A stretch of 64,000 bases of DNA from Patescibacteria group bacterium (GCA_041650335.1 JBAZLK010000001.1:36940-100939), one strand, 5' to 3'. Counted from the first letter of the stretch, positions 4,724 to 44,674 are shown. The notes: generated from the sequence alone by a model not told the origin. Numbers and translations are program-made.

Positions 4724-6331
4724 ATGGCCTTTCCAAGACGGCCAAAGAACGCGCTTCTCGCGTCCTTCCAGAAGGACGAGCGGCTATCGGGGTTCGCCCA
4801 GGGGTTGCATGATCTGGGTTGGCAAGAGTGGGGTAGCGCGGGGACGGCAGAGTTCTTGATGGGTCAGGGTGTCGAAATCACCGACCTTGAGACTCTCACC
4901 GGTTTCCCGCCTCTGATGGATCACCGGCTGGCTACGCTGAGCCATCGGATTCATGGCGGCATCCTCTGCCGTGATGACCCGAGCGATATTAGCGATCTGG
5001 CTAAGCTAGGCGGCATTCCGTTCGGCCTGGTCTTCGTGGATCTCTATCCCGTTATGCGGGCGATCCGCGAAGGCAAGCCGTTCGAGGAAATCATCAGACT
5101 CATCGACATCGGCGGCCCGACTCTGCTGCGCGGGGCGGCCAAGGCGCACACGTATGGTTGCATCCCTGTATGCGACCTGGACGATTGTCAGATGGTACTC
5201 GGGCTGCTTGAGACCGACAGCCTGACCGACGACATACTTACCCAGCTAGCGCAGAAGGTGTTTGCCACCATGTCGGCCTACGACGGCGTGATCGCCGGGT
5301 ATCTGTCCGGACTCGGGCCGGTTCGTTCGCTCTATCTGCCGATGTTGCTGGGCGAACAGGCCCTCCGGTACGGCGAGAACCCGCATCAGGAAGCCTGGAT
5401 CTACCAGCTGCCAGGCGAAGATCTTTTGGCCTGGCACCGCTGGGAACTGCTCCAGGGAAAGCAGATGTCGTACAACAACTGGCGGGACTGGGACGCGGCG
5501 CTCCAGGCGCTCGGACATCTGGTCCGACCGAGCATGGAAGCGAGCGTCGTCATGAAGCACCGGAACCCGGTCGGCTGTCTCGTAACGGAGCAGGGAATCG
5601 AGGCGGGTGTGTTGCTTCAACGCGCCTGGGAAGGTGACGAGCTGGCGGCATTCGGCGGAGTGATCGGGTTGACGCTGCCGATCGATTTGCCGGCCGCTCA
5701 GTATCTCACCTCGAAGTTCGCGGAAGTGGTGATGGCGCCGGCTGTTACCGAAGAGGCTCGGGAGGTGTTGGCGCGGAAGCCTAATCTGCGCGTGCTCGTG
5801 AACCCGGCCTTGGGCGAGCTGCGTCATCATCCGGCGCCGGAATATGAGCATGTCCAGATCCGCGGCGGCGCACTCAGGCAGATGGCGAACCAGCATCATC
5901 TCGAGGCCAGCGATCTGTACCACGCGGCCGGACCCGAAATCGACCCAGCACTGATTCCCGATCTGCTGACCGCCTGGGCAATCTGCCAGTCGGCCGTGTC
6001 GAACACGGTCTGTGTCGTATGGGCGGGTCGTTTGCTCGGTATCGGCGCGGGTGATCCAGCTCGCGTTCAGGCGGCTCGGACGGCGGTTGAGGCGGCAGCC
6101 CGGCATACGGACAGCCATATGGCCCATTTCTCAGTGGCAGCATCGGACTCGTTCTTCCCGTTCCCGGACGGCGCTGAAGTGCTGATCGATGCTGGCGTGA
6201 AGGCGATTCTTCATCCGGGCGGTTCGGTCAAGGACAAGGACACGGAGGCGCTCTGCAACGCTCGCGGCGTGCCGCTCTACTACACCTCGGCTGATCCGAA
6301 GAACGCCATGATCCGGGCGTTTCGTCATTGA
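4724..6331 (+). CDS. purH: bifunctional AICAR transformylase / IMP cyclohydrolase PurH (divergent)
   Basis: Collinear PurH motifs are present: GFPPLMDHRLATLSHRIHGGIL, IDIGGPTLLRGAAKAH, RYGENPHQEA, KQMSYNN, KHRNPVG, AFGGVIG, IGAGDPARV, SDSFFPFPDG, HPGGSVKD and a C-terminal RAFRH. Confidence 0.85.
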   Translation: MAFPRRPKNALLASFQKDERLSGFAQGLHDLGWQEWGSAGTAEFLMGQGVEITDLETLTGFPPLMDHRLATLSHRIHGGILCRDDPSDISDLAKLGGIPFGLVFVDLYPVMRAIREGKPFEEIIRLIDIGGPTLLRGAAKAHTYGCIPVCDLDDCQMVLGLLETDSLTDDILTQLAQKVFATMSAYDGVIAGYLSGLGPVRSLYLPMLLGEQALRYGENPHQEAWIYQLPGEDLLAWHRWELLQGKQMSYNNWRDWDAALQALGHLVRPSMEASVVMKHRNPVGCLVTEQGIEAGVLLQRAWEGDELAAFGGVIGLTLPIDLPAAQYLTSKFAEVVMAPAVTEEAREVLARKPNLRVLVNPALGELRHHPAPEYEHVQIRGGALRQMANQHHLEASDLYHAAGPEIDPALIPDLLTAWAICQSAVSNTVCVVWAGRLLGIGAGDPARVQAARTAVEAAARHTDSHMAHFSVAASDSFFPFPDGAEVLIDAGVKAILHPGGSVKDKDTEALCNARGVPLYYTSADPKNAMIRAFRH

Positions 6332-6383
6332 TCATTCGGGTTTCGCGGACGCGCACCTCTCGGTGTTCGCCCGCTTTTCTTTT

Positions 6384-6392
6384 TGGTATAAT
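6384..6392 (+). promoter_or_regulatory. extended -10 element (TGgTATAAT) 7 nt before the ATG at 6400; leaderless start
   Basis: The TATAAT hexamer ends at 6392 and the start codon is at 6400, with no SD. Confidence 0.45.
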
Positions 6393-6399
6393 AAACAGT

Positions 6400-7836
6400 A
6401 TGTTGAATCCAAAGCGAGAATTATTTCGCTGGGGGCCGATACCGGGACGGCTCATATCGATCGATGACTGGAGCGCTATCTTCCAGCTCTACCCTGGGCG
6501 TTTACACCGTTTTTGCTGGTCTGATTCATACCAGATATTTCGAAATGGCGAGATGCTGTTTGTGTCAGATATGCATGATTTTGAACGAGTTGCCGGCCGG
6601 GTATTTCAGCAAATATTCGATCGTAAATCACTGACGCGCTACCAAAAGGCTTGGCGGACCAGCGTCCGCAATCTTTTCGACTACTGTCGGAGTATTACTG
6701 CTACTCGGTTGTCAGGGCTACCCGATCGCGCCCTGGAAACTGAATGGAAAAAATTTCACGAGCTGCTCAAACATTTTTGGGAACCGGCCGTCATTCCGGA
6801 ACTGGCGGCGTATGGCGGCGCACCGGAACTACGGCGGCTGTTAAGCCGGCACGGTTTGAATGGGGAAGCGCTGCAAACTGTTACCGCGAGGCTGTCAGCC
6901 CCGGAGCTTTTGTCATTTTATCAAGAGGAAGAACGCGACTTTCTGAAACTCTTTCGGCTGCGATCAAAAACAGCTCGGTATAAGGCTCTAAAAAACCACT
7001 ACCAGCGGTATAATTGGATAGAAAATTCCTATGGTGCCGTGCAATTCTTGACGCTGGCGGATTTCCAGCGGCAGTTGCGCGACCGAAAACAAGGCTGGTC
7101 ACAGCGTGCCCGCGCCATTGACCGCCACATTGCGACAGTACGTCGGGAAAAGGCTCGGGTGATAAGAGAATATCGGTTATCAAAGACGATCTGTCGGACG
7201 GCGGATAGGCTCAGCCTGGCTATCGGTTGGCAGGATGAGCGAAAGAAGCAGATCTTCCGGTATTTGCATTTTCAGGAATTGTTCCTGCGCGAATTTTCAC
7301 GCCGTTCTGGTGTGCCGCTGGTTCAGTTAAGCACAGCGATGGTATCTGAAGTCGTATCAAAACCGACTCGACAAAAAAAATACGAGTGGCGCCGAAGGTA
7401 TAAGTATCCCCACGTGCTCATATTAGGCCGGCGAGTTCATCGCGTTTTGAGCGGCGCGTCGGCGCGAAAAATTGTTCGGGATTTTTTCCAGACGCCGAAA
7501 CCGCTGCAGCGCAAAGAGTTAACCGGCATCGTTGCCCATTCAGGTTCAGCCAGGATCGTCGGACGCGTATTCGTCGTGCGCAATCACGAGCAACTAAAGC
7601 GCTTTCCGGCGGGCGCCATCCTGGTGAGCACGCAGACGGCCCCGGAATACGTAACCGCCATTCGAAAATCAAGGGCGATAGTGACTGATGCCGGCGGAAT
7701 CACCTCGCACGCGGCGATTGTGGCCCGGGAATATGACAAACCATGCATCGTTGGAACAAAATACGCGACCAGCATACTGCGAACAGGGGATCGTATTGCG
7801 GTTGACGCACGGAAGGGATTAGTGGTTAAGTTATAA
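6400..7836 (+). CDS. PEP-utilising-enzyme mobile (phosphohistidine) domain protein with an unassigned ~350-aa N-terminal region
   Basis: The C-terminus carries VTDAGGITSHAAIVAREYDKPCIVG, the PEP-utilisers His-domain signature. The N-terminal region has no recognisable motif. Confidence 0.7.
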   Translation: MLNPKRELFRWGPIPGRLISIDDWSAIFQLYPGRLHRFCWSDSYQIFRNGEMLFVSDMHDFERVAGRVFQQIFDRKSLTRYQKAWRTSVRNLFDYCRSITATRLSGLPDRALETEWKKFHELLKHFWEPAVIPELAAYGGAPELRRLLSRHGLNGEALQTVTARLSAPELLSFYQEEERDFLKLFRLRSKTARYKALKNHYQRYNWIENSYGAVQFLTLADFQRQLRDRKQGWSQRARAIDRHIATVRREKARVIREYRLSKTICRTADRLSLAIGWQDERKKQIFRYLHFQELFLREFSRRSGVPLVQLSTAMVSEVVSKPTRQKKYEWRRRYKYPHVLILGRRVHRVLSGASARKIVRDFFQTPKPLQRKELTGIVAHSGSARIVGRVFVVRNHEQLKRFPAGAILVSTQTAPEYVTAIRKSRAIVTDAGGITSHAAIVAREYDKPCIVGTKYATSILRTGDRIAVDARKGLVVKL

Positions 7837-7859
7837 GGCTTACGATTAAGAAATACGGT

Positions 7860-8675
7860 ATGTCACTTTTTCAAACCCTTGAAGACAAAGCAAAACAAAA
7901 ACGCCGCCGGATCGGAATTTCCATCCTTCGTTGGAACGATCCGATTCGGGCCAGCTTGGAAAAAGCCAAAGCAATCGCCGATATTATCGTATATGGTGAC
8001 CCAAAATACGGCTTTAATGGCGTTACCAATGACAATCAGGAAGAGGTTGGTCGGCAGATGGTTCGGGATTATAAAGCGGGGAAGCTTGACCAATTCGTGC
8101 GCGGCCAGGTCGATGATTTCGGCACAGTCGATGAGTTTAAAAAGCAGTTTGGCGTTCCCGATGACCTAAGAAGATTCGGTCCGGCGCTGATGCGTGATGC
8201 TTTTGACCGCGAGTTCTGGATGATTCTCGTCTCTAATCCAGAAGGCCAAACCCTAGAGCAGAAAGTGAGGTATGCCGACGGCGTGCTGGCCTGGCTCAAG
8301 GAAATGTTCCCGTCATTTGTGCCGAAGGTGGCGGTGATGGCTACATGCCGGCCTGGCTCGGTTGGACGCGATCCGGTAATGACACAGAGCTACGAGCAGG
8401 CTGAGTCACTGGTCAGTCATCTATCCGGCGAAGGAATTGAGTCGAAAAATGTGCATATCGAGATCGAAAACGCGATTACCTGGTCAAATTTCATCATTCC
8501 GGCCAATGGCACAATCGGCAATCAGATTTTCCGGGCTCTCTGCTATCTCGGCAGAGGCAAAATTCTTGTCTGCCCGACAATACTGCCCGGCTACGGCATC
8601 TATGAAGACGACAGCCGGAACGAGGAGGATTGGTATCCACATATTGCGGCTGCAGCAGCCTATGTGAAAAAATAG
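7860..8675 (+). CDS. hypothetical protein
   Basis: Intact 271-aa ORF with only a vague resemblance to phosphate acyltransferase-like folds. No firm motif. Confidence 0.45.
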   Translation: MSLFQTLEDKAKQKRRRIGISILRWNDPIRASLEKAKAIADIIVYGDPKYGFNGVTNDNQEEVGRQMVRDYKAGKLDQFVRGQVDDFGTVDEFKKQFGVPDDLRRFGPALMRDAFDREFWMILVSNPEGQTLEQKVRYADGVLAWLKEMFPSFVPKVAVMATCRPGSVGRDPVMTQSYEQAESLVSHLSGEGIESKNVHIEIENAITWSNFIIPANGTIGNQIFRALCYLGRGKILVCPTILPGYGIYEDDSRNEEDWYPHIAAAAAYVKK

Positions 8676-8684
8676 TGACAATAA

Positions 8685-8712
8685 AAAACCGGGCAGAGAA
8701 CTCGGTTTTTTG
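8685..8712 (+). terminator. weak terminator for the + strand gene
   Basis: AAAACCG...CGGTTTT stem followed by a T run. Confidence 0.35.
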
Positions 8713-8726
8713 GAAATAAAAAATGA

Positions 8727-8753
8727 GGGCAAAGTTCTTTGCAGAACTTGCCC
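8727..8753 (-). terminator. rho-independent terminator for the convergent minus-strand M20 gene
   Basis: GGGCAAAGTTCT-ttgc-AGAACTTGCCC hairpin. On the minus strand it is followed by TTTTTTATTT. Confidence 0.5.
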
Positions 8754-8789
8754 TCGTGCGTAGTTGGCGGGAACAATGCCCGCCGTTGG

Positions 8790-10022
8790 TCAGTCCTGGG
8801 TCGCCAACTGCAGCCAGTAGGCGACCCCCAACACGAGCGCGCGCTCGTCGGGGTTGAAGAGAGGTCTGTGGTGCCCGTGGCCGTGGACAGCCTGCTCAGC
8901 CGGTGTGATACCGCCGGCACCCAGGAACATGAAGTTCCCCGGGAAGCCAGCGTTGTGAAACTGGCCGAAGGACTCGCCGCCGAGTATCTGGTCCATCTCG
9001 GCGACATGAGCAACGGGATTGTCGTGGGACAGCCGAGCCCAGGCGGCAACTTCGTGAGCCGCCCGTCGAGCGGCTTCCGTGGGAAGCGGATCGTTGATCG
9101 TGGGAATGTGTCCGGCCGGGTGGTCGACGCTGATTTCCACGTCCGGCCAGGCGGTCCGGAACGACTCGATGATGCGGTCGAGGCAGGTGTGCATTCCGTC
9201 GTAGGTCTCGCGGTCGAGTGCTCGAAACGTGAATTCGAACTCGATCACCGAGGGAACAACGTTCGCTGATTGCGCCGGAGTTGGAGCGGCGCAATGAACG
9301 AATCCCTTGGGCTGGAATTTGCGGGTCAGGCTTCCGGCGAGTTTCGTGACCAGCCAAGCATAGGCGTCGATCGGACTGACGATCGAGCCCTGCCCATACT
9401 CCATGGCGTGGCCGCCCCTGGCACGGAGCGTGATCTTCGGCCGGTCGCTGTAGCATGAGATCGTTCCGACACAGGTCAGGAAGGTGCCGGTCGGGTACAC
9501 GACGCCACAGTGGGACGTGAGCACGTGCAGGCCATGGACCTCGTCCAGGCCGTGGCCCCCGCCTTCGGCGAGCAGCTTCGGCTCGCCCCCAGGCGGAATC
9601 TCCTCGGCCCTGGTGAAGAGAAGCCGGATATTCCGTGTCAGAGATGCGCGGTTGGACACGAGACGCCCGGCAGCCATCAGGAGCATGGCCACGTGGCAGT
9701 CGTGCCCGCAGGCATGCATGACTCCGGGCACGGTCGAAGCGTACTCGAGTCCGGTCTCTTCCTCGATCGGCAGGGCGTCCATGTCCGCCCTGAAGCCGAT
9801 GCGCGGAGCAGTGGTTCCGAGCGACGAGCTGTCGATGTCGCAGATGATTCCGCCGGTGATGATCTTCGGCGAGAGACCCATCTGCTGCAGTAGAGTGATG
9901 ACTCGCTCGGCCGTTGCCGTTTCGAGCCAGCCCAGCTCGGGCTGGCGGTGAAGATCTCGACGAAGAGCGATCAGCATTGCCTCGGCTTGGCCGAGAAGAC
10001 TGTCGAACAGAGATAACGGCAT
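8790..10022 (-). CDS. M20-family amidohydrolase (aminoacylase / hippurate hydrolase-like)
   Basis: The MHACGHD metal-binding motif is present. Start is the ATG at 10022, preceded by CAGGAGGGTACCT. GC is very high, which generates long antisense shadow ORFs. Confidence 0.85.
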   Translation of the reverse strand: MPLSLFDSLLGQAEAMLIALRRDLHRQPELGWLETATAERVITLLQQMGLSPKIITGGIICDIDSSSLGTTAPRIGFRADMDALPIEEETGLEYASTVPGVMHACGHDCHVAMLLMAAGRLVSNRASLTRNIRLLFTRAEEIPPGGEPKLLAEGGGHGLDEVHGLHVLTSHCGVVYPTGTFLTCVGTISCYSDRPKITLRARGGHAMEYGQGSIVSPIDAYAWLVTKLAGSLTRKFQPKGFVHCAAPTPAQSANVVPSVIEFEFTFRALDRETYDGMHTCLDRIIESFRTAWPDVEISVDHPAGHIPTINDPLPTEAARRAAHEVAAWARLSHDNPVAHVAEMDQILGGESFGQFHNAGFPGNFMFLGAGGITPAEQAVHGHGHHRPLFNPDERALVLGVAYWLQLATQD

Positions 10023-10207
10023 AGGTACCCTCCTGTGTTCGTCCGTGGTATCCAACGCGACTCATCTATGTATGCACATCAAGGTTCGCCTTGATAAAAC
10101 CAAAGATGTGAAAAGGGCGCAATGTAACCAGGTACTATAGACGAAAAACTTGAAATTGTCAAGGGTTTTCAGTGAAATATAGGTGATTTGTATTTTTTCA
10201 AAAGTTA

Positions 10208-10216
10208 TGCTATAAT
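10208..10216 (+). promoter_or_regulatory. extended -10 element (TGcTATAAT) 12 nt before the ATG at 10229
   Basis: The hexamer lies directly upstream of the start and there is no SD. Confidence 0.45.
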
Positions 10217-10228
10217 AAGTTCACGTTT

Positions 10229-11173
10229 ATGGAGAAAATTACCCTTCCATTTAGCCAAATTGATATTTCATCTGTTCCCGACGCCGGTGGGAAGGGTGCC
10301 AATCTCGGCGAGCTGACAAAAGCCGGCATTCCGGTACCGCCCGGATTCGTTGTCACGGCCACGGCGTTCAAGAAATATCTCGAGCTGTCAGACCTTGATG
10401 TCGAACTCGACGCCATCCTTGATGAACTGAAGATAGAGGACGTCAGTTCGGTCGAACGCGAGTCGCGGAAGATGCGTTCGCTCATTCAACGAGAGAAAAT
10501 ACCTGAAGCGATAAGCCAAGAAATCAAAACAGCGTTTCGTCATTTACGGGCCAAGTACGTGGCCGTGCGCTCCTCGGCTACGGCTGAGGATTCAAAAGTG
10601 GCTTCCTGGGCAGGCGAGCTCGAAACCTACCTCTTTATCACCGACAAGGAGCTTCTCGCCGCTGTTCGGAAATGCTGGTCATCGCTCTATACGCCGCGGG
10701 CTTTGTTCTACCGATTTGAAAAGAAACTGCACAACAAGATGATCCGCGTCGCGGTCGTCGTGCAGAAAATGATCAATGCAAAGGTTTCCGGTATCGCCTT
10801 TACCACCCACCCGGTGACGCGCGACCCAAATCAGCTGATTATTGAAGCGGGGTGGGGTTTGGGTGAGGCGATCGTGTCAGGGCAGATAACGCCTGACGCC
10901 TACGTCCTGGACAAGGCAGATAACACCTTGATTGACGTAAACGTAAACCGGCAGGAGATGATGATCGTGCCGGCTGTGCCGAAGGGTACAAAAAAAGTGA
11001 GCGTGCCGCGAGCGAAGCAAGAAAAACAAAAACTGACCAAAAGCCAGATTCTTACGCTGGTCGACATCCTCCGGCGGATCGAAAAATATTATGGTAGCCC
11101 ACAGGACATCGAGTGGGCGTTTAACGGGCAAAATTTCTATATTGTTCAGACGCGCCCAATAACCACGCTTTAA
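10229..11173 (+). CDS. PPDK_N-type ATP-binding domain protein (PEP synthase / rifampin phosphotransferase-like N-domain only)
   Basis: N-terminal signature DAGGKGANLGEL...GIPVPPGFVVT. The protein is 314 aa and has no His domain or TIM-barrel domain. Confidence 0.8.
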   Translation: MEKITLPFSQIDISSVPDAGGKGANLGELTKAGIPVPPGFVVTATAFKKYLELSDLDVELDAILDELKIEDVSSVERESRKMRSLIQREKIPEAISQEIKTAFRHLRAKYVAVRSSATAEDSKVASWAGELETYLFITDKELLAAVRKCWSSLYTPRALFYRFEKKLHNKMIRVAVVVQKMINAKVSGIAFTTHPVTRDPNQLIIEAGWGLGEAIVSGQITPDAYVLDKADNTLIDVNVNRQEMMIVPAVPKGTKKVSVPRAKQEKQKLTKSQILTLVDILRRIEKYYGSPQDIEWAFNGQNFYIVQTRPITTL

Positions 11174-11175
11174 TT

Positions 11176-12993
11176 ATGGAGCTAGCCGGTACATCACCGC
11201 AGGCCAAAACAAACGGCGCAGACAATCTTGCCGATCAGATTCTTGACGCACTCCAAAGTCAGTCGTCGAAGCACGCCCTGACTCTGCTTTTCCAGCTCCA
11301 AACCAAAGAACAAACGGCGGCGCTGCCCGCTGACCTCCAGGAACAGAAACAGCGCCTGCAAATCATTGCTATCCCGTTGCTCTCGGCCAACGAGCTGGTT
11401 TCGATTTTTCAAAAAAATCTCGGGCCGGTACTCGAATTTAATGTCGGCGATCGTTTGAAACGCCGATTCGTGTCGTTACCGTTACGCGACCAGGACGAGC
11501 TGAAACAGAATATTCAGTCGGCTCTCGAATTAAACACGCTCCCGTTTGTATCGGGCGTCGTGGCTTCGCCGGCGGCCTGGATCGAGCAATATAATCTGCG
11601 ACACGGACAATATGCCGATTTCTTAAAGAATAACGTAGCCTATATTTCCCTGACGAAAGAAGAGCAACTGAAGGTTGAGCGTCTCATGCGGCTGTATCAG
11701 CAGATTTCCGCGCCCTCCACGTCACCGGCTGGGATCGAGGACGAGATGTTGGTGAAGGATGAACAAGGGAAATTTCAGGTATTGCGCGAGGGACACTTCA
11801 TCGAACTGAACGCCGAGCCCATCGAAACCCCGCCGACTCCGAGTCCAAGCATCCAGCCAGTCCCACCAAAACAAGGTATTCCGCCGTCGCCGGTTGTGAC
11901 GATCCCGGTCGCGCCGACAGTGCCACCGCGGCCGACAGTCCCGCCCAGAACCGATCTCCCGAAGCCAGCGGCGGCGCCAGTCCAGCCGGTTTCCCGGCCG
12001 ATTATTCCGCAGCCGCGTCCCAGCCCAGCCAGCCAAAGCCCGACCGCTGATTTCTATTTTCATCGCGAAGATGAGGAGGAGGTGAATCGCTATCGGACGC
12101 GGCTCGCCGACGCTGCCATGCCAACCGGCGTCAATATTGAACAGATCGCCGATCGGCTGATCCGCGATTTTCGTTTGACCTTTGCCAATGACGCGTTACG
12201 TTCGCGCTTTGTCAGCATCATCGTTTCCCGCCTGAAAGACGTACGCGATTTGATTGAAACAAAGAACATGCTCATGCGGCCGATTGAGGTCGGCGGCATT
12301 GGTCTGCCGGAAACGCTCGTGATGCAAATTCTTTCTCAGGTTGAGGAGGAAATACTGACTTTACATAATCGGCCAGCTGAGCCGGTCAGTCAGAAAAAAC
12401 CACCCGAACCGGCTCCCGTCAAACCGCCTGAGGAGCCAATTACGCCACCGGCTGCTCAAATGCCGCCAGTGATCGCGCCGACAGTACCGTCGCGGCCGAC
12501 AGTCCCGCCCAGAACCGATCTCCCGAAGCCAGCGGCGGTGGTTCAACCAACGCCAATTCAGCCGCGCCAACCTGTGACGAGTCAGCCTGCAAAATCGGGC
12601 ACGACCATTGTAAAACGGCCTGTTGAGACAATGCGGCCGGTCATGTCGGACATAAAGCCGCCGGCCAAGACTGTCGGACCAGTTGAAGAAATTCTTCGCC
12701 TGACGCCTGACGATTACCGTCGTCTCGGAAAGACCTTGGCCGAAGCGAATGATAAAATCGCTGAAAAACTCGACCTGCTGGAAGAGGATTCATATCTCAG
12801 ACGGGCCGAGGGCGTAAAAGCCTGGAAGAAGAACGCCGTTCACCGGCTTTATCTCGAGATCGGCCGGGAAAGCATGGAGCGGAACATGGCCATTTCGGAC
12901 GTTATTCGCCAGCGTCAGGAAGCGAATCGCCCGACCGTAACCGAGGAGGAATTTCACGCCATCGCTGATTTAAATAAGCGGATAAGTTTCTAG
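11176..12993 (+). CDS. proline-rich hypothetical protein with two internal near-identical repeats
   Basis: 605 aa with no signal peptide or TM segment. The PTVPPRPTVPPRTDLPKPAA block occurs twice. Confidence 0.55.
   Translation: MELAGTSPQAKTNGADNLADQILDALQSQSSKHALTLLFQLQTKEQTAALPADLQEQKQRLQIIAIPLLSANELVSIFQKNLGPVLEFNVGDRLKRRFVSLPLRDQDELKQNIQSALELNTLPFVSGVVASPAAWIEQYNLRHGQYADFLKNNVAYISLTKEEQLKVERLMRLYQQISAPSTSPAGIEDEMLVKDEQGKFQVLREGHFIELNAEPIETPPTPSPSIQPVPPKQGIPPSPVVTIPVAPTVPPRPTVPPRTDLPKPAAAPVQPVSRPIIPQPRPSPASQSPTADFYFHREDEEEVNRYRTRLADAAMPTGVNIEQIADRLIRDFRLTFANDALRSRFVSIIVSRLKDVRDLIETKNMLMRPIEVGGIGLPETLVMQILSQVEEEILTLHNRPAEPVSQKKPPEPAPVKPPEEPITPPAAQMPPVIAPTVPSRPTVPPRTDLPKPAAVVQPTPIQPRQPVTSQPAKSGTTIVKRPVETMRPVMSDIKPPAKTVGPVEEILRLTPDDYRRLGKTLAEANDKIAEKLDLLEEDSYLRRAEGVKAWKKNAVHRLYLEIGRESMERNMAISDVIRQRQEANRPTVTEEEFHAIADLNKRISF
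11911..11974 (+). repeat. intragenic 64-bp direct repeat, copy 1
   Basis: GCGCCGACAGTGCCACCGCGGCCGACAGTCCCGCCCAGAACCGATCTCCCGAAGCCAGCGGCGG. Confidence 0.9.
12475..12538 (+). repeat. intragenic 64-bp direct repeat, copy 2 (61/64 identical)
   Basis: Same sequence as copy 1 with 3 substitutions near its 5' end, lying 564 bp downstream. Confidence 0.9.
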
Positions 12994-12999
12994 GGGAGC

Positions 13000-13455
13000 A
13001 TGCCACTTCAATTCACTGTGCCACAATTCATCGATGTTGAAGACAAGATCTTCGGTCCGATCTCGGTCCGTCAATTCGTTATTATTTTAATTGGGATCGG
13101 TGTGGTCGTGATGCTGTATTTCGTGTTAACATTTACATTGTTCATCCTTGCCGCTCCGCTCGCCTGTGGCGTGATCGCCATCTTTGCCTTCTTTAAGATA
13201 AATGGCCAGCATTTTCACCTTTTTCTCCTCAACGTCGCGACCACCTTCCGTCGTCCGCGCATCAAACTGTGGCATAAACACTTGGATGATGACGAGATCC
13301 AAGAGGAAAAAGCGAAGGAAAAGGTCGGTTCAGAAGGCGGCGGACCGCCGAAGGTCACTCCGACGAAAAGCCGTCTGCGGGAGCTTTCTCTGATCGTCGA
13401 CACCGGTGGCGCCTACGGCGAGGAATCCTGGCAGGTAACTCGCGATATCCGATAG
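13000..13455 (+). CDS. PrgI/VirB3-like small membrane protein (T4SS)
   Basis: N-terminus FTVPQFIDVEDKIFGPISVRQ followed by two TM helices. It sits immediately upstream of VirB4. Confidence 0.6.
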   Translation: MPLQFTVPQFIDVEDKIFGPISVRQFVIILIGIGVVVMLYFVLTFTLFILAAPLACGVIAIFAFFKINGQHFHLFLLNVATTFRRPRIKLWHKHLDDDEIQEEKAKEKVGSEGGGPPKVTPTKSRLRELSLIVDTGGAYGEESWQVTRDIR

Positions 13456-13468
13456 CTAACAAACATTC

Positions 13469-14152
13469 ATGCCTACTCCACAGAACAAACAGCGCAAAAA
13501 CACTCCCTCGACTCAGCGGTTCGTGCCGATCGCTGAAATTAAGGATGACGCCGTCATCCTAAAAGACGGGACCATCCGAGGCGTTATCCTGGTTTCCTCG
13601 ATCAATTTTGCTTTGAAGTCGGAAGACGAACAAAACGCCATCATTCAGGCCTACACTCAGTTTCTCAACTCATTTGAATTCCCGGTGCAGGTAGTGATTC
13701 AATCGCGGAAACTTGATATCGATGAATACCTCCAACGGCTCGAGAAGGTTGAAAAGGAGCAAATGAACGAGTTGTTAAAAATGCAGACCCGGGAATACCG
13801 CCAGTTTGTAAACGAACTGATCGAATTGGCTGATATTATGAGCAAGCGTTTCTATGTCATTGTCCCGTACGCGCCGGTAACGAAAAAATCCTCGAAGAAA
13901 TTTTTTGACCGGGTCCAGGAATTATTTGCGCCCAGCCGGATTATTCAACTGAAAAAAAGCCAATTTGAAAAATACCACACCGAACTGGCGAAGCGGGTTG
14001 ATTTCTTGATCAGCGGCTTGAACGCCATGGGCTTAAAAGCCGTCGGCCTTGATACGCAGAGTCTGATCGAACTGTATTACAATACATATAATCCAGAGAC
14101 CTACGACCACCAAGAATTGGTCCAGGTTGATCGCATTCAAGTGGAGCACTAA
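13469..14152 (+). CDS. VirB4/TrbE N-terminal segment encoded as a separate ORF
   Basis: The pattern FVPIAEIKDDAVILKDG...INFALKSEDEQ...FLNSFEFPVQVVIQS matches the N-domain of Gram-positive-type VirB4. The stop at 14150-14152 lies 2 nt before the next ORF's ATG, in a different frame. Confidence 0.6.
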   Translation: MPTPQNKQRKNTPSTQRFVPIAEIKDDAVILKDGTIRGVILVSSINFALKSEDEQNAIIQAYTQFLNSFEFPVQVVIQSRKLDIDEYLQRLEKVEKEQMNELLKMQTREYRQFVNELIELADIMSKRFYVIVPYAPVTKKSSKKFFDRVQELFAPSRIIQLKKSQFEKYHTELAKRVDFLISGLNAMGLKAVGLDTQSLIELYYNTYNPETYDHQELVQVDRIQVEH

Positions 14153-14154
14153 TT

Positions 14155-16080
14155 ATGGCAAACCTCGATCTCTCGAAAAAACAAGCCGCGATACCGGAAG
14201 CAACCCAGGCCAAGGTCATTTTAACGCCGCAACAAAAACGCGAGGCGGAGGCATTGGCTCTTGAGCGCGAGAAACGCGCGATTGAAGTCGAGCGGATCTA
14301 CCGCGAAGGCGTGGTGACGATCCGGGATCTGATCGCCCCGTCGTCTTTCCGGGTCATGCCGTCGTATGTCGAGTTGGGCAGCAAATTCGTCCGGACACTC
14401 TTCGTGGTGACCTATCCGCGTTATCTCACGGTCGGCTGGTTTGCGCCGATAGTCAATCTCAATTTCACGCTCGATATCTCGATGTATTTCTACCCGATCG
14501 GTTCCGACATTATTTTGAAGCAATTACGGAACAAAGTCGGTGCTCTCGAAGCACAAATCATGGCTGACGCTGAAAAGGGAGCGGCGCGCGATCCGATGCG
14601 AGAAACCGCGCTGCGCGACATTGAGAAGCTGCGCGATGATCTGACTCAGGGAACCGAGAAATTCTTCCAATTTTCTCTGTATGTCACCCTGTATGCGGAT
14701 TCGCTCAAGGAGCTAAATGAATTGACGGACCGCGTCGAAGGCATGCTCGGCTCACGTCTGGTTTATTCAAAGCGGGTGTTTTACCAGGCGGAACAGGGCT
14801 ATAATTCAACTCTGCCCATGGCGATCGACGAGATCAATGTGACCTTTAACATGAACACCTCGCCGGCCGCCTCGTCCTTCCCGTTTATATCGTCCGAGCT
14901 GACGAGCGACAACGGAATTCTTTACGGCATTAACCGCCACAACAACAGCTTGATCCTATTTGACCGTTTCAGTCTCCAGAATGCCAACTCCTGCGTTTTC
15001 GCCACCTCGGGCGCAGGCAAAAGCTATGCGGTCAAGCTTGAGGTGCTCCGCAGCTTAATGCTTGGCACAGACGTTATCATTATTGATCCGGAAAAGGAAT
15101 ATAAGTATCTCTGCGACGCGGTCGGCGGGGCCTACGTCAACATCTATCTCAACTCGGATTCAAAGATCAACCCATTTGATTTGCCGCGACCGGTCGGGGA
15201 GGCTGACCGACCGGCTGACATCATCCGTTCAGCCGTGATTACGTTGAAGGGGCTGCTCCGCTTGATGCTCGGGGAATTTACGCACGAGGAAGACTCGCTG
15301 GTTGACCGGGCGCTGATCGAAACCTACGCCAAGAAAGACATTACGGCTGATTCTGACCTGACGAAGATCGAAGCGCCGCTCATGTCTGATTTTGAAGAAG
15401 TTCTCGGCGGGATGGAGGGTGGCGACGGCTTAGTGAAGCGGCTGAAGAAATTCACCGAGGGAACGTTTGCCGGTCTGTTTAATAGCCCAACGAACATTGA
15501 TGTTAAAAATCAACTGGTCGTGTTCAGCGTGCGGGATCTTGAAGACGAGCTGCGGCCGATTGCGATATATACCATCATCAATTATATCTGGAATGTTGTC
15601 CGGTCGGAAATGAAAAAGCGGATTATGGTTATCGATGAGGCGTGGTGGCTGATGCAGAACGAAGACTCGGCCAAATTCATCTATGCACTGGTTAAACGCT
15701 GCCGCAAATATTATCTTGGGGTGACGACGATCACGCAGGACGTAAACGACTTTTTGCGATCGCCGTACGGTCAGGCCATTGTCACAAACTCGTCATTGCA
15801 GCTGTTGCTCAAACAGTCGCCGGCCGGTGTTGATATTTTGGCAAAAACATTCTTACTGACAGAAGGCGAAAAATATTTGCTTCTTGAAAGCGGGGTTGGC
15901 GAGGGAATATTCTTTGCCGGTGCCCGCCATGCCGCCATCAAAGTTGTCGCCTCGTATACGGAGGATCAAATCATTACCTCGGATCCGAAGCAGCTGCTCG
16001 AGATTGAGGCCGCGAAGAAGGAATTCGCCGAATCAATGGCTCAAGAGGAGGACGTAAAGTCAGCTGCACCAAAACCATAG
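14155..16080 (+). CDS. VirB4/TrbE/CagE-family type IV secretion ATPase (ATPase segment)
   Basis: Walker A FATSGAGKS and Walker B IMVIDEAWW are present, with VirB4-like collinearity. Confidence 0.9.
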   Translation: MANLDLSKKQAAIPEATQAKVILTPQQKREAEALALEREKRAIEVERIYREGVVTIRDLIAPSSFRVMPSYVELGSKFVRTLFVVTYPRYLTVGWFAPIVNLNFTLDISMYFYPIGSDIILKQLRNKVGALEAQIMADAEKGAARDPMRETALRDIEKLRDDLTQGTEKFFQFSLYVTLYADSLKELNELTDRVEGMLGSRLVYSKRVFYQAEQGYNSTLPMAIDEINVTFNMNTSPAASSFPFISSELTSDNGILYGINRHNNSLILFDRFSLQNANSCVFATSGAGKSYAVKLEVLRSLMLGTDVIIIDPEKEYKYLCDAVGGAYVNIYLNSDSKINPFDLPRPVGEADRPADIIRSAVITLKGLLRLMLGEFTHEEDSLVDRALIETYAKKDITADSDLTKIEAPLMSDFEEVLGGMEGGDGLVKRLKKFTEGTFAGLFNSPTNIDVKNQLVVFSVRDLEDELRPIAIYTIINYIWNVVRSEMKKRIMVIDEAWWLMQNEDSAKFIYALVKRCRKYYLGVTTITQDVNDFLRSPYGQAIVTNSSLQLLLKQSPAGVDILAKTFLLTEGEKYLLLESGVGEGIFFAGARHAAIKVVASYTEDQIITSDPKQLLEIEAAKKEFAESMAQEEDVKSAAPKP

Positions 16081-24731: not shown

Positions 24732-24808
24732 TGGTGCGCCCGGCAGGGGTCGAACCTGCGACCTTGAGATCCGCAATCTCACGCTCTATCCAGCTGAGCT
24801 ACGGGCGC
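24732..24808 (-). tRNA. tRNA-Arg: tRNA-Arg (anticodon read as GCG)
   Basis: The reverse complement folds as a 77-nt cloverleaf GCGCCCGTAGCTCAGCTGGATAGAGCG-TGAGA-TTGCGGA-TCTCA-...GGTTCGACCCCTGCCGGGCGCACCA. Confidence 0.85.
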
Positions 24809-26167: not shown

Positions 26168-26257
26168 TGGCGGAGGCGGTAGGATTCGAACCTACGATAC
26201 CTTTGCAGGTATTCCGGTTTTCAAGACCGGCCCGTTCAACCACTCCGGCACGCCTCC
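26168..26257 (-). tRNA. tRNA-Ser: tRNA-Ser (anticodon TGA), long variable arm
   Basis: The reverse complement is GGAGGCGTGCCGGAGTGGTTGAACGG...CCGGT-CTTGAAA-ACCGG...GGTTCGAATCCTACCGCCTCCGCCA. Confidence 0.85.
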
Positions 26258-44584: not shown

Positions 44585-44674
44585 TGGCGGAGAGTGCAGG
44601 ATTCGAACCTGCGAGGGACCTTACGGTCCCATGGTTTAGCAAACCATTGCCTTAAGCCACTCGGCCAACTCTCC
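44585..44674 (-). tRNA. tRNA-Ser: tRNA-Ser (anticodon GCT), long variable arm
   Basis: The reverse complement is GGAGAGTTGGCCGAGTGG...ATGGT-TTGCTAA-ACCAT...GGTTCGAATCCTGCACTCTCCGCCA. Confidence 0.85.

Follow-up and report, generated by a model that had tools for sequence, protein, structure and literature searches.

The closest described systems are the single-chain rifampin phosphotransferase (RPH) and a group of two-component dikinases that have already been characterised, namely PpsAB, CreHI and HpeHI, which act on phenol, 4-methylphenol and hydroxyphenylethanones, respectively (PMC12167813). For HpeHI, the ATP-grasp subunit has been solved by crystallography and its partner modelled as RPH-like, the complex of the two is transient, and the substitution H581Q abolishes activity (PMC12167813). 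Division of such an enzyme over two polypeptides is therefore a known design and not a new principle. Here we analysed a 64,000-nucleotide stretch of DNA from a Patescibacteria group bacterium (GCA_041650335.1, JBAZLK010000001.1:36940-100939), referred to below as the window, with positions counted from its first letter. It carries one gene for an acceptor and swivel-domain protein (gene A) and, further along the same strand, one gene for a stand-alone ATP-grasp protein (gene B). The evidence makes it likely that A and B each provide one subunit of an RPH-type dikinase that phosphorylates small molecules at the expense of ATP.

Domain architecture and catalytic residues of genes A and B

The first-pass annotation had described two separate genes, one for the PPDK_N ATP-binding domain alone and the other for an unassigned domain followed by a phosphohistidine swivel domain, and our searches bear this out. 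Gene A (6400..7836, plus strand) encodes 478 amino acids (aa) and corresponds exactly to the deposited protein MFA5106736.1, named 'PEP-utilizing enzyme' (PEP, phosphoenolpyruvate), while gene B (10229..11173, plus strand) encodes a protein of 314 aa that is identical to NCBI MFA5106739.1. The products of A, of B and of gene C, which starts shortly after A (7860..8675, plus strand; MFA5106737.1), are all identical to deposited proteins of a "Patescibacteria group bacterium" metagenome-assembled genome with a contig of 363,808 bp, and these identities, together with the family matches, are far beyond chance. The ATG of gene A at 6400 is nested within a TTG-started open reading frame (ORF) at 6328..7836; it encodes the Met where the family alignment begins exactly (MLNPKRELFRWGP), and the whole family uses that start.

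Gene B gave a single Pfam domain, PPDK_N (PF01326, 2.2e-99, aa 19-313). The protein aligns with residues 4-316 of RPH-Lm at 211 bits, and its K22, R114 and T133 correspond to K22, R117 and T136 of the ATP site in RPH. As B residue 314 falls on RPH residue 316, the split point between the two genes is the boundary between the ATP-grasp and the rifampin-binding (RIF-binding) domain of RPH. In gene A, Pfam found PF00391 alone, the PEP-utilizers swivel domain at aa 402-473 (7603..7818, plus strand; 1.2e-24), and placed no family over aa 1-370 (6400..7509, plus strand), a region also without an NCBIfam model that we refer to as the acceptor domain. A weak Pfam match of A to UDP-GlcNAc 2-epimerase (E 0.0047) was below cutoff and overlaps the swivel domain, and was treated as spurious. 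A search with aa 1-370 alone retrieved 608 cluster representatives (E<=1e-3); most have 470-490 aa, and some have 740-835 aa. The N-terminal motif ELFRWGPIPGR marks the subfamily to which the A protein of the window belongs (31 of 215 family ORFs). Overall, profile searches place A and B in the same enzyme superfamily and not in unrelated families.

We then compared the predicted structure of A with known structures. The AlphaFold2 model, based on 41 homologs, has a predicted local distance difference test (pLDDT) score of 93.6 and a predicted TM-score (pTM) of 0.91. Over the whole chain, it matched only RPH-Lm in the PDB (5fbu/5fbt/5hv1; 5fbu at E 1.7e-13 with a query TM-score, TMq, of 0.59), while PEP synthase, pyruvate phosphate dikinase (PPDK), pyruvate kinase and Enzyme I were matched through the swivel domain only, at a TMq of ~0.2. 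The unassigned domain, which had been proposed as the substrate-binding module, is thus RIF-binding-domain-like in the model, in agreement with that proposal. Identity between A and RPH over the acceptor domain is ~14%, and positions 218-478 of the family profile A1 align with RPH-Lm residues 607-865.

This alignment connects two conserved elements of A with the catalytic residues of RPH. The swivel motif GGITSHAAIVAREYDKPCIVG is present as T429-D-A-G-G-I-T-S-H437, a T-x-x-G-G-x-T-S-H motif; His437 (codon 7708..7710, plus strand), the catalytic His expected in the TSH motif, aligns with RPH His825, is invariant in A1 and is kept in 213 of the 215 family ORFs. In addition, the WQDxRK loop, W277-Q-D279-E-R281-K282, falls on Y665-R666-E667-Y-P-K670 of RPH, with D279 on E667 and K282 on K670 (codons of D279-E-R281-K282 at 7234..7245, plus strand). 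In RPH, R666, E667 and K670 constitute the second phosphotransfer site, and both R666A and E667A abolish rifampin inactivation (PMC4844700). The loop is invariant in A1; of the 215 family ORFs, 145-193 retain its residues, R281 being present in 193 and K282 in 162. Since the catalytic residues are kept in A and in B, both active sites look intact.

The pair might instead be a split but genuine PEP synthase or PPDK, making PEP from pyruvate. Homologs of B are often named 'pyruvate, water dikinase', and B reaches 325.6 bits on the PEP synthase model NF005057. The swivel domain of A is closest to PEP synthase swivels (8a8e, 1.3e-19, in an alignment that is 92% accurate), and within GGxT[SC]H the Thr at which PEP synthase is regulated is still present (PMC12167813). 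However, the C-terminal PEP/pyruvate-binding TIM barrel (PEP-utilizers_C) is absent, as PF00391 in A and PF01326 in B are the only Pfam domains of the pair, and no other relative of A or B was found in the window. Moreover, the non-swivel domain of A is helical and RIF-binding-domain-like and lies N-terminal to the swivel, which is the wrong domain order, and the scores on PEP synthase models (B 325.6 and A 95.7 bits against a cutoff of 598) are all far below 598 and 739.75. We therefore rejected a genuine PEP synthase as highly improbable, because the PEP-binding domain is missing.

The same absence bears on how B-type proteins are named. The best 120 homologs of B are all PPDK_N-only proteins of Patescibacteria, 56-99% identical to it and 233-350 aa long (nearly all 309-350 aa), so that the split form is both stable and widespread. 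Many Patescibacteria proteins that consist of PPDK_N alone, ~312 aa in length, carry the names 'pyruvate, water dikinase' or 'Phosphoenolpyruvate synthase' and have neither a swivel domain nor a PEP-binding domain. The name "pyruvate, water dikinase" is probably wrong for the homologs of B. As a PEP-binding domain is lacking, it is probably also a mistake to count B-type proteins as a gluconeogenic step in metabolic reconstructions of Patescibacteria.

Further support for A and B as two halves of one enzyme comes from relatives in which they are fused. The 803-aa protein P0076 of Liptonbacteria has the order PPDK_N, middle domain and swivel, and P0106 is built likewise. B matches aa 7-313 of P0076 with 55% identity (1e-118), and aa 67-475 of A match its aa 390-797 with 32% identity (3e-48). 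These fused relatives, together with the fold match to RPH only, strengthen the earlier proposal that the three-domain logic of RPH and PEP-synthase-like kinases is reproduced here as two polypeptides.

By homology with RPH, PpsAB and HpeHI, the RPH-type dikinase composed of A and B would be expected to work as follows. The ATP-grasp protein B would bind ATP, and the C-terminal swivel domain of A would dock transiently on B, a contact that we infer between the two proteins. His437 would attack the beta-phosphate, yielding pyrophospho-His and AMP, after which the gamma-phosphate would leave as Pi. The swivel domain would then return onto the N-terminal RIF-binding-domain-like domain of A itself, where the phosphate would be passed to the bound acceptor, most likely a hydroxyl of a small molecule, with assistance from the loop D279-x-R281-K282. 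The net reaction would be ATP + X-OH + H2O -> AMP + Pi + X-O-P. Gene C, and probably the M20-type amidohydrolase gene that lies between C and B, would belong to the same functional neighbourhood and may act before or after phosphorylation.

Co-occurrence, fusions and arrays in relatives

A scan of one genome per species provided 78 loci with A relatives. They belong to Patescibacteria or DPANN archaea; a few bins bear other labels, probably in error. In 33 of the 78 loci, including six fused ORFs in addition to P0076 and P0106, a B-type gene or domain is found at most 10 kb from A, as it is in 14 of the 29 loci where the A gene or array is fully inside the fetched DNA. Assuming, as a null, a probability of 0.02-0.05 for PPDK_N per random 20-kb stretch, this enrichment has a binomial p <1e-10. 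A and B are directly adjacent in three loci (L006, L009 and L050). The relatives therefore do not show each gene occurring independently of the other.

The gene map of the window, on the other hand, shows A and B apart. Gene C starts 23 bp downstream of the end of gene A, and the two are probably co-transcribed. A terminator-like hairpin with a U-run follows gene C (8682..8712, plus strand; folding energy -12.2 kcal/mol, z -4.1), although the consensus terminator scan did not call it. Convergent with the A-C unit, a second terminator-like hairpin with a U-run follows the M20 gene (8725..8755, minus strand), and the minus-strand fold of 8715-8795, on the 3' side of M20, has an energy of -32.5 kcal/mol (z -5.4). 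A sigma-70-like promoter faces the M20 gene (10134..10162, minus strand; TTGACA-17-TATAGT, 11/12), and an extended -10 element, TGCTATAAT, can be read just 5' of gene B. These signals suggest at least three transcription units, A-C, M20 and B with its downstream genes. As the signals look separate and an antisense gene lies between, A and B apparently do not form one operon.

This arrangement would suit a situation in which A and B are not partners at all, B serving some other partner or being a relic, and A being charged by another donor, for example PEP as in Enzyme I. Besides the separate transcription units and the antisense gene, the start of a type IV secretion-like cluster lies 3 bp after B, L048, L058 and L088 have the same gene order, and in roughly half of the A loci B is missing from the surrounding 10 kb. 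Yet fused B-A proteins exist in relatives, B is strongly enriched beside A arrays, and the order A-C-M20-B persists where A has fallen to 48% identity. Furthermore, A has no PEP-binding domain, and the window contains exactly one A and one B. We thus consider it very unlikely that the two proteins work apart.

Several observations nevertheless weigh against the assignment of A and B to a single RPH-type small-molecule dikinase, beginning with the 2.4-kb gap that separates them, with two genes in it, one antisense, and apparently separate transcription signals, and with the related loci, about half of them, without B within 10 kb. The model of A superimposes on RPH with a global root-mean-square deviation (rmsd) of 9-10 A, which in the predicted structure likely reflects domain placement. 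RPH Arg666 aligns with Gln278 and not with an Arg, the invariant R281 being three positions further on. On the PRK08296 set of NCBIfam ('hypothetical protein'), which probably represents PpsA/HpeH-type subunits, the best score of A is 97.9 bits (NF006153) against a cutoff of 578, and the match is limited to aa 359-477, the swivel region. Finally, the acceptor may not be a small molecule, a point to which we return below.

In relatives, A-type genes are usually found in same-strand arrays, with at least three of them in 37 of the 78 loci, a maximum of 12 and typically one B. Arrays of 12, 10 and 9 A hits, each with one B, occur in L019, L020 and L023, respectively, and in a 960-kb Patescibacteria contig (L083/L088), B closes an array of 11 A genes. 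Inside this 11-gene array there is also a Y1 (IS200/IS605-type) transposase gene (L083 11544-12107). Beyond arrays of separate genes, a giant fusion of 3768 aa in Woesearchaeota (L046, 6188-17491, JAFGGS010000004.1) combines one ATP-grasp with eight GGxT[SC]H modules, and three fusions of 1159-1311 aa combine one ATP-grasp with two modules (L045 384-4316; L070 7967-11665; L080 7877-11353). Searches of the 64-kb window with the A1 profile and with B revealed no further A or B copy, and the genome thus has the minimal one-plus-one version, at least within 64 kb.

Within arrays, acceptor domains are only 17-20% identical, compared with 52-61% for swivel domains. The acceptor domain has its best match in a different genome, and not within its own array, in 163 of 170 array members (median 222 vs 51 bits). 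The arrays are accordingly made of old, conserved subfamilies, and this result rules out recent lineage-specific duplication as their origin. Conserved swivel domains, divergent acceptor domains and a usually single, conserved B fit one charging subunit for many acceptor subunits, and, going by these gene counts, a single B probably supplies all A paralogs in array genomes. We tentatively suggest, as a possibility that we hold to be somewhat less than even, that the pair represents, in its smallest version, an ancient and modular kinase system, not described before and common to Patescibacteria and DPANN. In this system, one ATP-grasp protein would charge many acceptor-specific subunits, regularly joined by an MtxX-like protein and by phosphohydrolases or amidohydrolases.

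Neighbouring genes and the nature of the acceptor

Gene C encodes an MtxX/MMP4-like protein of 271 aa with a predicted phosphate-acyltransferase fold. It matches no Pfam family, and its score on TIGR03270 (MtxX/methanogenesis marker 4; 8.7e-23, 80.8 bits) is below the cutoff of 190. In the PDB, its AlphaFold2 model (pLDDT 94.8) is closest to MtxX 9nzy (E 1.1e-14, 24% identity) and next to PTA/PTB enzymes. MtxX itself is a protein without an assigned function (PMC12978539). Homologs of C across Patescibacteria are 41-79% identical, and all three whose surroundings were inspected lie within or at the edge of A arrays. Four more are found in A-gene loci (L009, L021, L059 and L061), one of which, L009, has a contiguous A-C-B.

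The third gene of the interval, on the minus strand (8790..10055), encodes an M20D-type amidohydrolase of 421 aa if started from the TTG at 10055, or 410 aa if started from the ATG at 10022 (PF01546, 4.5e-28; TIGR01891, 201.7 bits, above the cutoff of 153.75). Its GC content is 0.635, and that of the upstream purH gene (4724-6331) is 0.623, as against 0.505 for the window and 0.51-0.52 for A, C and B, which suggests an older acquisition of purH and M20 from a GC-richer donor. On GC alone, M20 might be viewed as a newly acquired foreign gene that does no more than interrupt an operon. We rejected this as the whole story, since the order A-C-M20(-)-B is kept not only in L001/L002 but also in L086, where A, M20 and C are 48%, 49% and 79% identical, respectively. 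M20 genes flank A or B genes in five other loci as well (L006, L021, L033, L057 and L066). The first-pass annotation had taken A and B to be separated by a hypothetical gene and a GC-rich M20 gene on the opposite strand; both genes and the GC content are as described, but they are probably members of the module and not bystanders.

Other genes recur beside A loci. HAD hydrolases do so at 8 loci, HD proteins at 6 and 5, and TrmB regulators, mostly in DPANN, at 11; Amidohydro_3, M29/NicX and FGase enzymes are further recurrent neighbours. The Hpe pathway likewise pairs a two-component dikinase with a HAD phosphatase (PMC9618137). We read the neighbourhood as that of a putative small-molecule processing module. 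A role in anti-phage defence was also considered and rejected, because a PADLOC search gave no match for A, B, C, M20 or the 605-aa protein encoded downstream of B. An Rfam search for a riboswitch that could hint at the substrate found nothing near A or B.

Some neighbours direct attention to larger acceptors. In L085 (8001-9652), a C homolog adjoins BacA, an undecaprenyl-diphosphatase. At the P0285 locus, C homologs lie near GT2, PMT_2 and GH8 genes, with two C paralogs side by side. In some methanogens, archaeal mtxX adjoins the gene for undecaprenyl pyrophosphate synthase (PMC12978539), and the neighbours of C may hint at polyprenyl-phosphate chemistry. The chemistry could thus be the same and the acceptor a macromolecule or a lipid-linked carrier, such as a protein, a glycan or a polyprenol; superfamily relatives do phosphorylate glucans (glucan water dikinase) or proteins (Enzyme I), and the C homologs mentioned above sit near BacA, glycosyltransferases and PMT_2. 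However, the only enzyme that matches the acceptor domain in structure is RPH, which acts on a small molecule, while Enzyme I matches the swivel only. Pfam gives no carbohydrate-binding, membrane-anchoring or other family on aa 1-370 of A, and the characterised two-component members all act on small phenolics (PMC12167813). A macromolecular or lipid-linked acceptor is therefore quite unlikely in our judgement.

If the acceptor is a small molecule, phosphorylation by A and B could serve either metabolic activation or salvage, or the inactivation of antibiotics or other xenobiotics as in RPH. That RPH is the sole structural match for the acceptor domain speaks for inactivation, and many diversified acceptor modules would suit a detoxification battery in epibionts that face host metabolites. 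In contrast, the array members are ancient and conserved across genomes (163 of 170), a pattern more in keeping with fixed metabolic specificities than with an arms race. The neighbours, comprising HAD and HD phosphohydrolases, amidohydrolases (M20, M29/NicX, FGase and Amidohydro_3), MtxX-like proteins and TrmB, resemble the catabolic Hpe cluster, in which a HAD phosphatase follows the dikinase (PMC9618137). Scores on the RPH equivalog, NF041857, are only 55.2 bits for A and 294.1 bits for B against a cutoff of 999, so that neither is an RPH by curated cutoffs. We therefore think that a role in inactivation is unlikely.

Downstream of B, a 605-aa proline-rich protein begins after 3 bp (11176-16080 region), and the type IV secretion system (T4SS) cluster includes PrgI/VirB3 (13000-13455), TraC-like (13469-14152) and VirB4-like ATPase (14155-16080) genes. 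B is followed by this cluster in L001 too, and the three further loci with this order, L048, L058 and L088, represent other lineages (L088 B is 57% identical); the order is absent from the remaining loci with enough downstream room. A paper on the T4SS of Patescibacteria mentions neither this order nor PF00391/PF01326-type proteins (PMC12102498). The order may reflect linkage by descent or a functional link.

Upstream of A, purH is full length in the window (535 aa, GC 0.62). Two strains that are ~89% identical (L001 and L002) lack the region corresponding to 5322-6308, a deletion of ~990 bp that leaves a 204-aa purH remnant (L001 2519-3133), and purH is thus dispensable or decaying in close relatives. 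Elsewhere in the window, there are a full-length LOOT RNA (Rfam RF03000; 31588-31709, plus strand; 90.4 bits against a gathering score of 46.4) and three tRNAs (24735-24808, 26171-26257 and 44588-44674).

Comparison with known systems

The interest of the pair lies less in the split than in an unstudied, ancient array system and in the likely misannotation of B. In the searchable library, we found no full-text paper linking PF00391/PF01326-type proteins to the candidate phyla radiation (CPR) or DPANN. Our results add to the two-component RPH-like dikinases (PMC12167813) a divergent branch of very large size, whose compact acceptor domain has no family model. Genomes of ~1 Mb spend 10-20 kb on arrays of A genes, and the conservation of array members across genomes and two domains of life points to an important part of small-molecule handling in these symbionts. 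If one charger does serve many acceptors, genome-poor symbionts would phosphorylate a broad, fixed palette of scavenged compounds, by an ATP-driven analogue of the logic of one Enzyme I and many Enzyme II components. The one-plus-one version in the window would be the simplest system in which to find a substrate.

Among known systems, HpeHI of Rhodococcus, CreHI of Corynebacterium glutamicum and PpsAB of Thauera aromatica have the same composition, a stand-alone PPDK_N subunit and an acceptor-swivel subunit. As in A, the catalytic His of the HpeHI type is located in a T/S-x-x-G-G-x-x-x-H motif near the C terminus, and a HAD phosphatase gene lies beside HpeHI just as HAD genes recur beside A arrays. 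In contrast to the 71-kDa HpeH, A has only 478 aa, and two residues before the His it has Thr, as PEP synthase does, and not Met. The NCBIfam models nearest to it, those of the PRK08296 set, do not pick up its acceptor domain. A and B are also not adjacent here, arrays typically have one B, an MtxX-like partner is present, and the hosts are Patescibacteria and DPANN and not aromatic-compound degraders.

RPH (RPH-Lm, PDB 5FBS/5FBT/5FBU/5HV1) shares the three-domain logic and the fold, yet it is one chain of 867 aa whereas two genes are found here, and nothing links the pair to rifamycins. PEP synthase and PPDK have a homologous ATP-grasp and a similar swivel with the GGxT[SC]H motif. They differ in the PEP/pyruvate-binding TIM barrel, which A and B lack, and in that the acceptor domain of A precedes the swivel. 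The prodiginine ligases PigC and RedH and PRK06241-type proteins have PPDK_N, middle and swivel domains in a single chain, as in P0076 and P0106. Here, by contrast, the chain is split; B scores 250-324 bits on these models, far below the cutoffs of 883-1350, and only the swivel region of A (aa 370-475) matches the PigC and RedH models, while two other PRK06241 models reach A aa 249 and 310 at scores far below cutoff. Finally, the sugar phosphotransferase system has a homologous swivel His domain and offers the analogy of one loader that serves many specificity components. Its donor is PEP, whereas the donor here would be ATP through the ATP-grasp protein, and homologs of HPr or Enzyme II are lacking; that one B would serve many A proteins is, in the present case, read from gene counts only.

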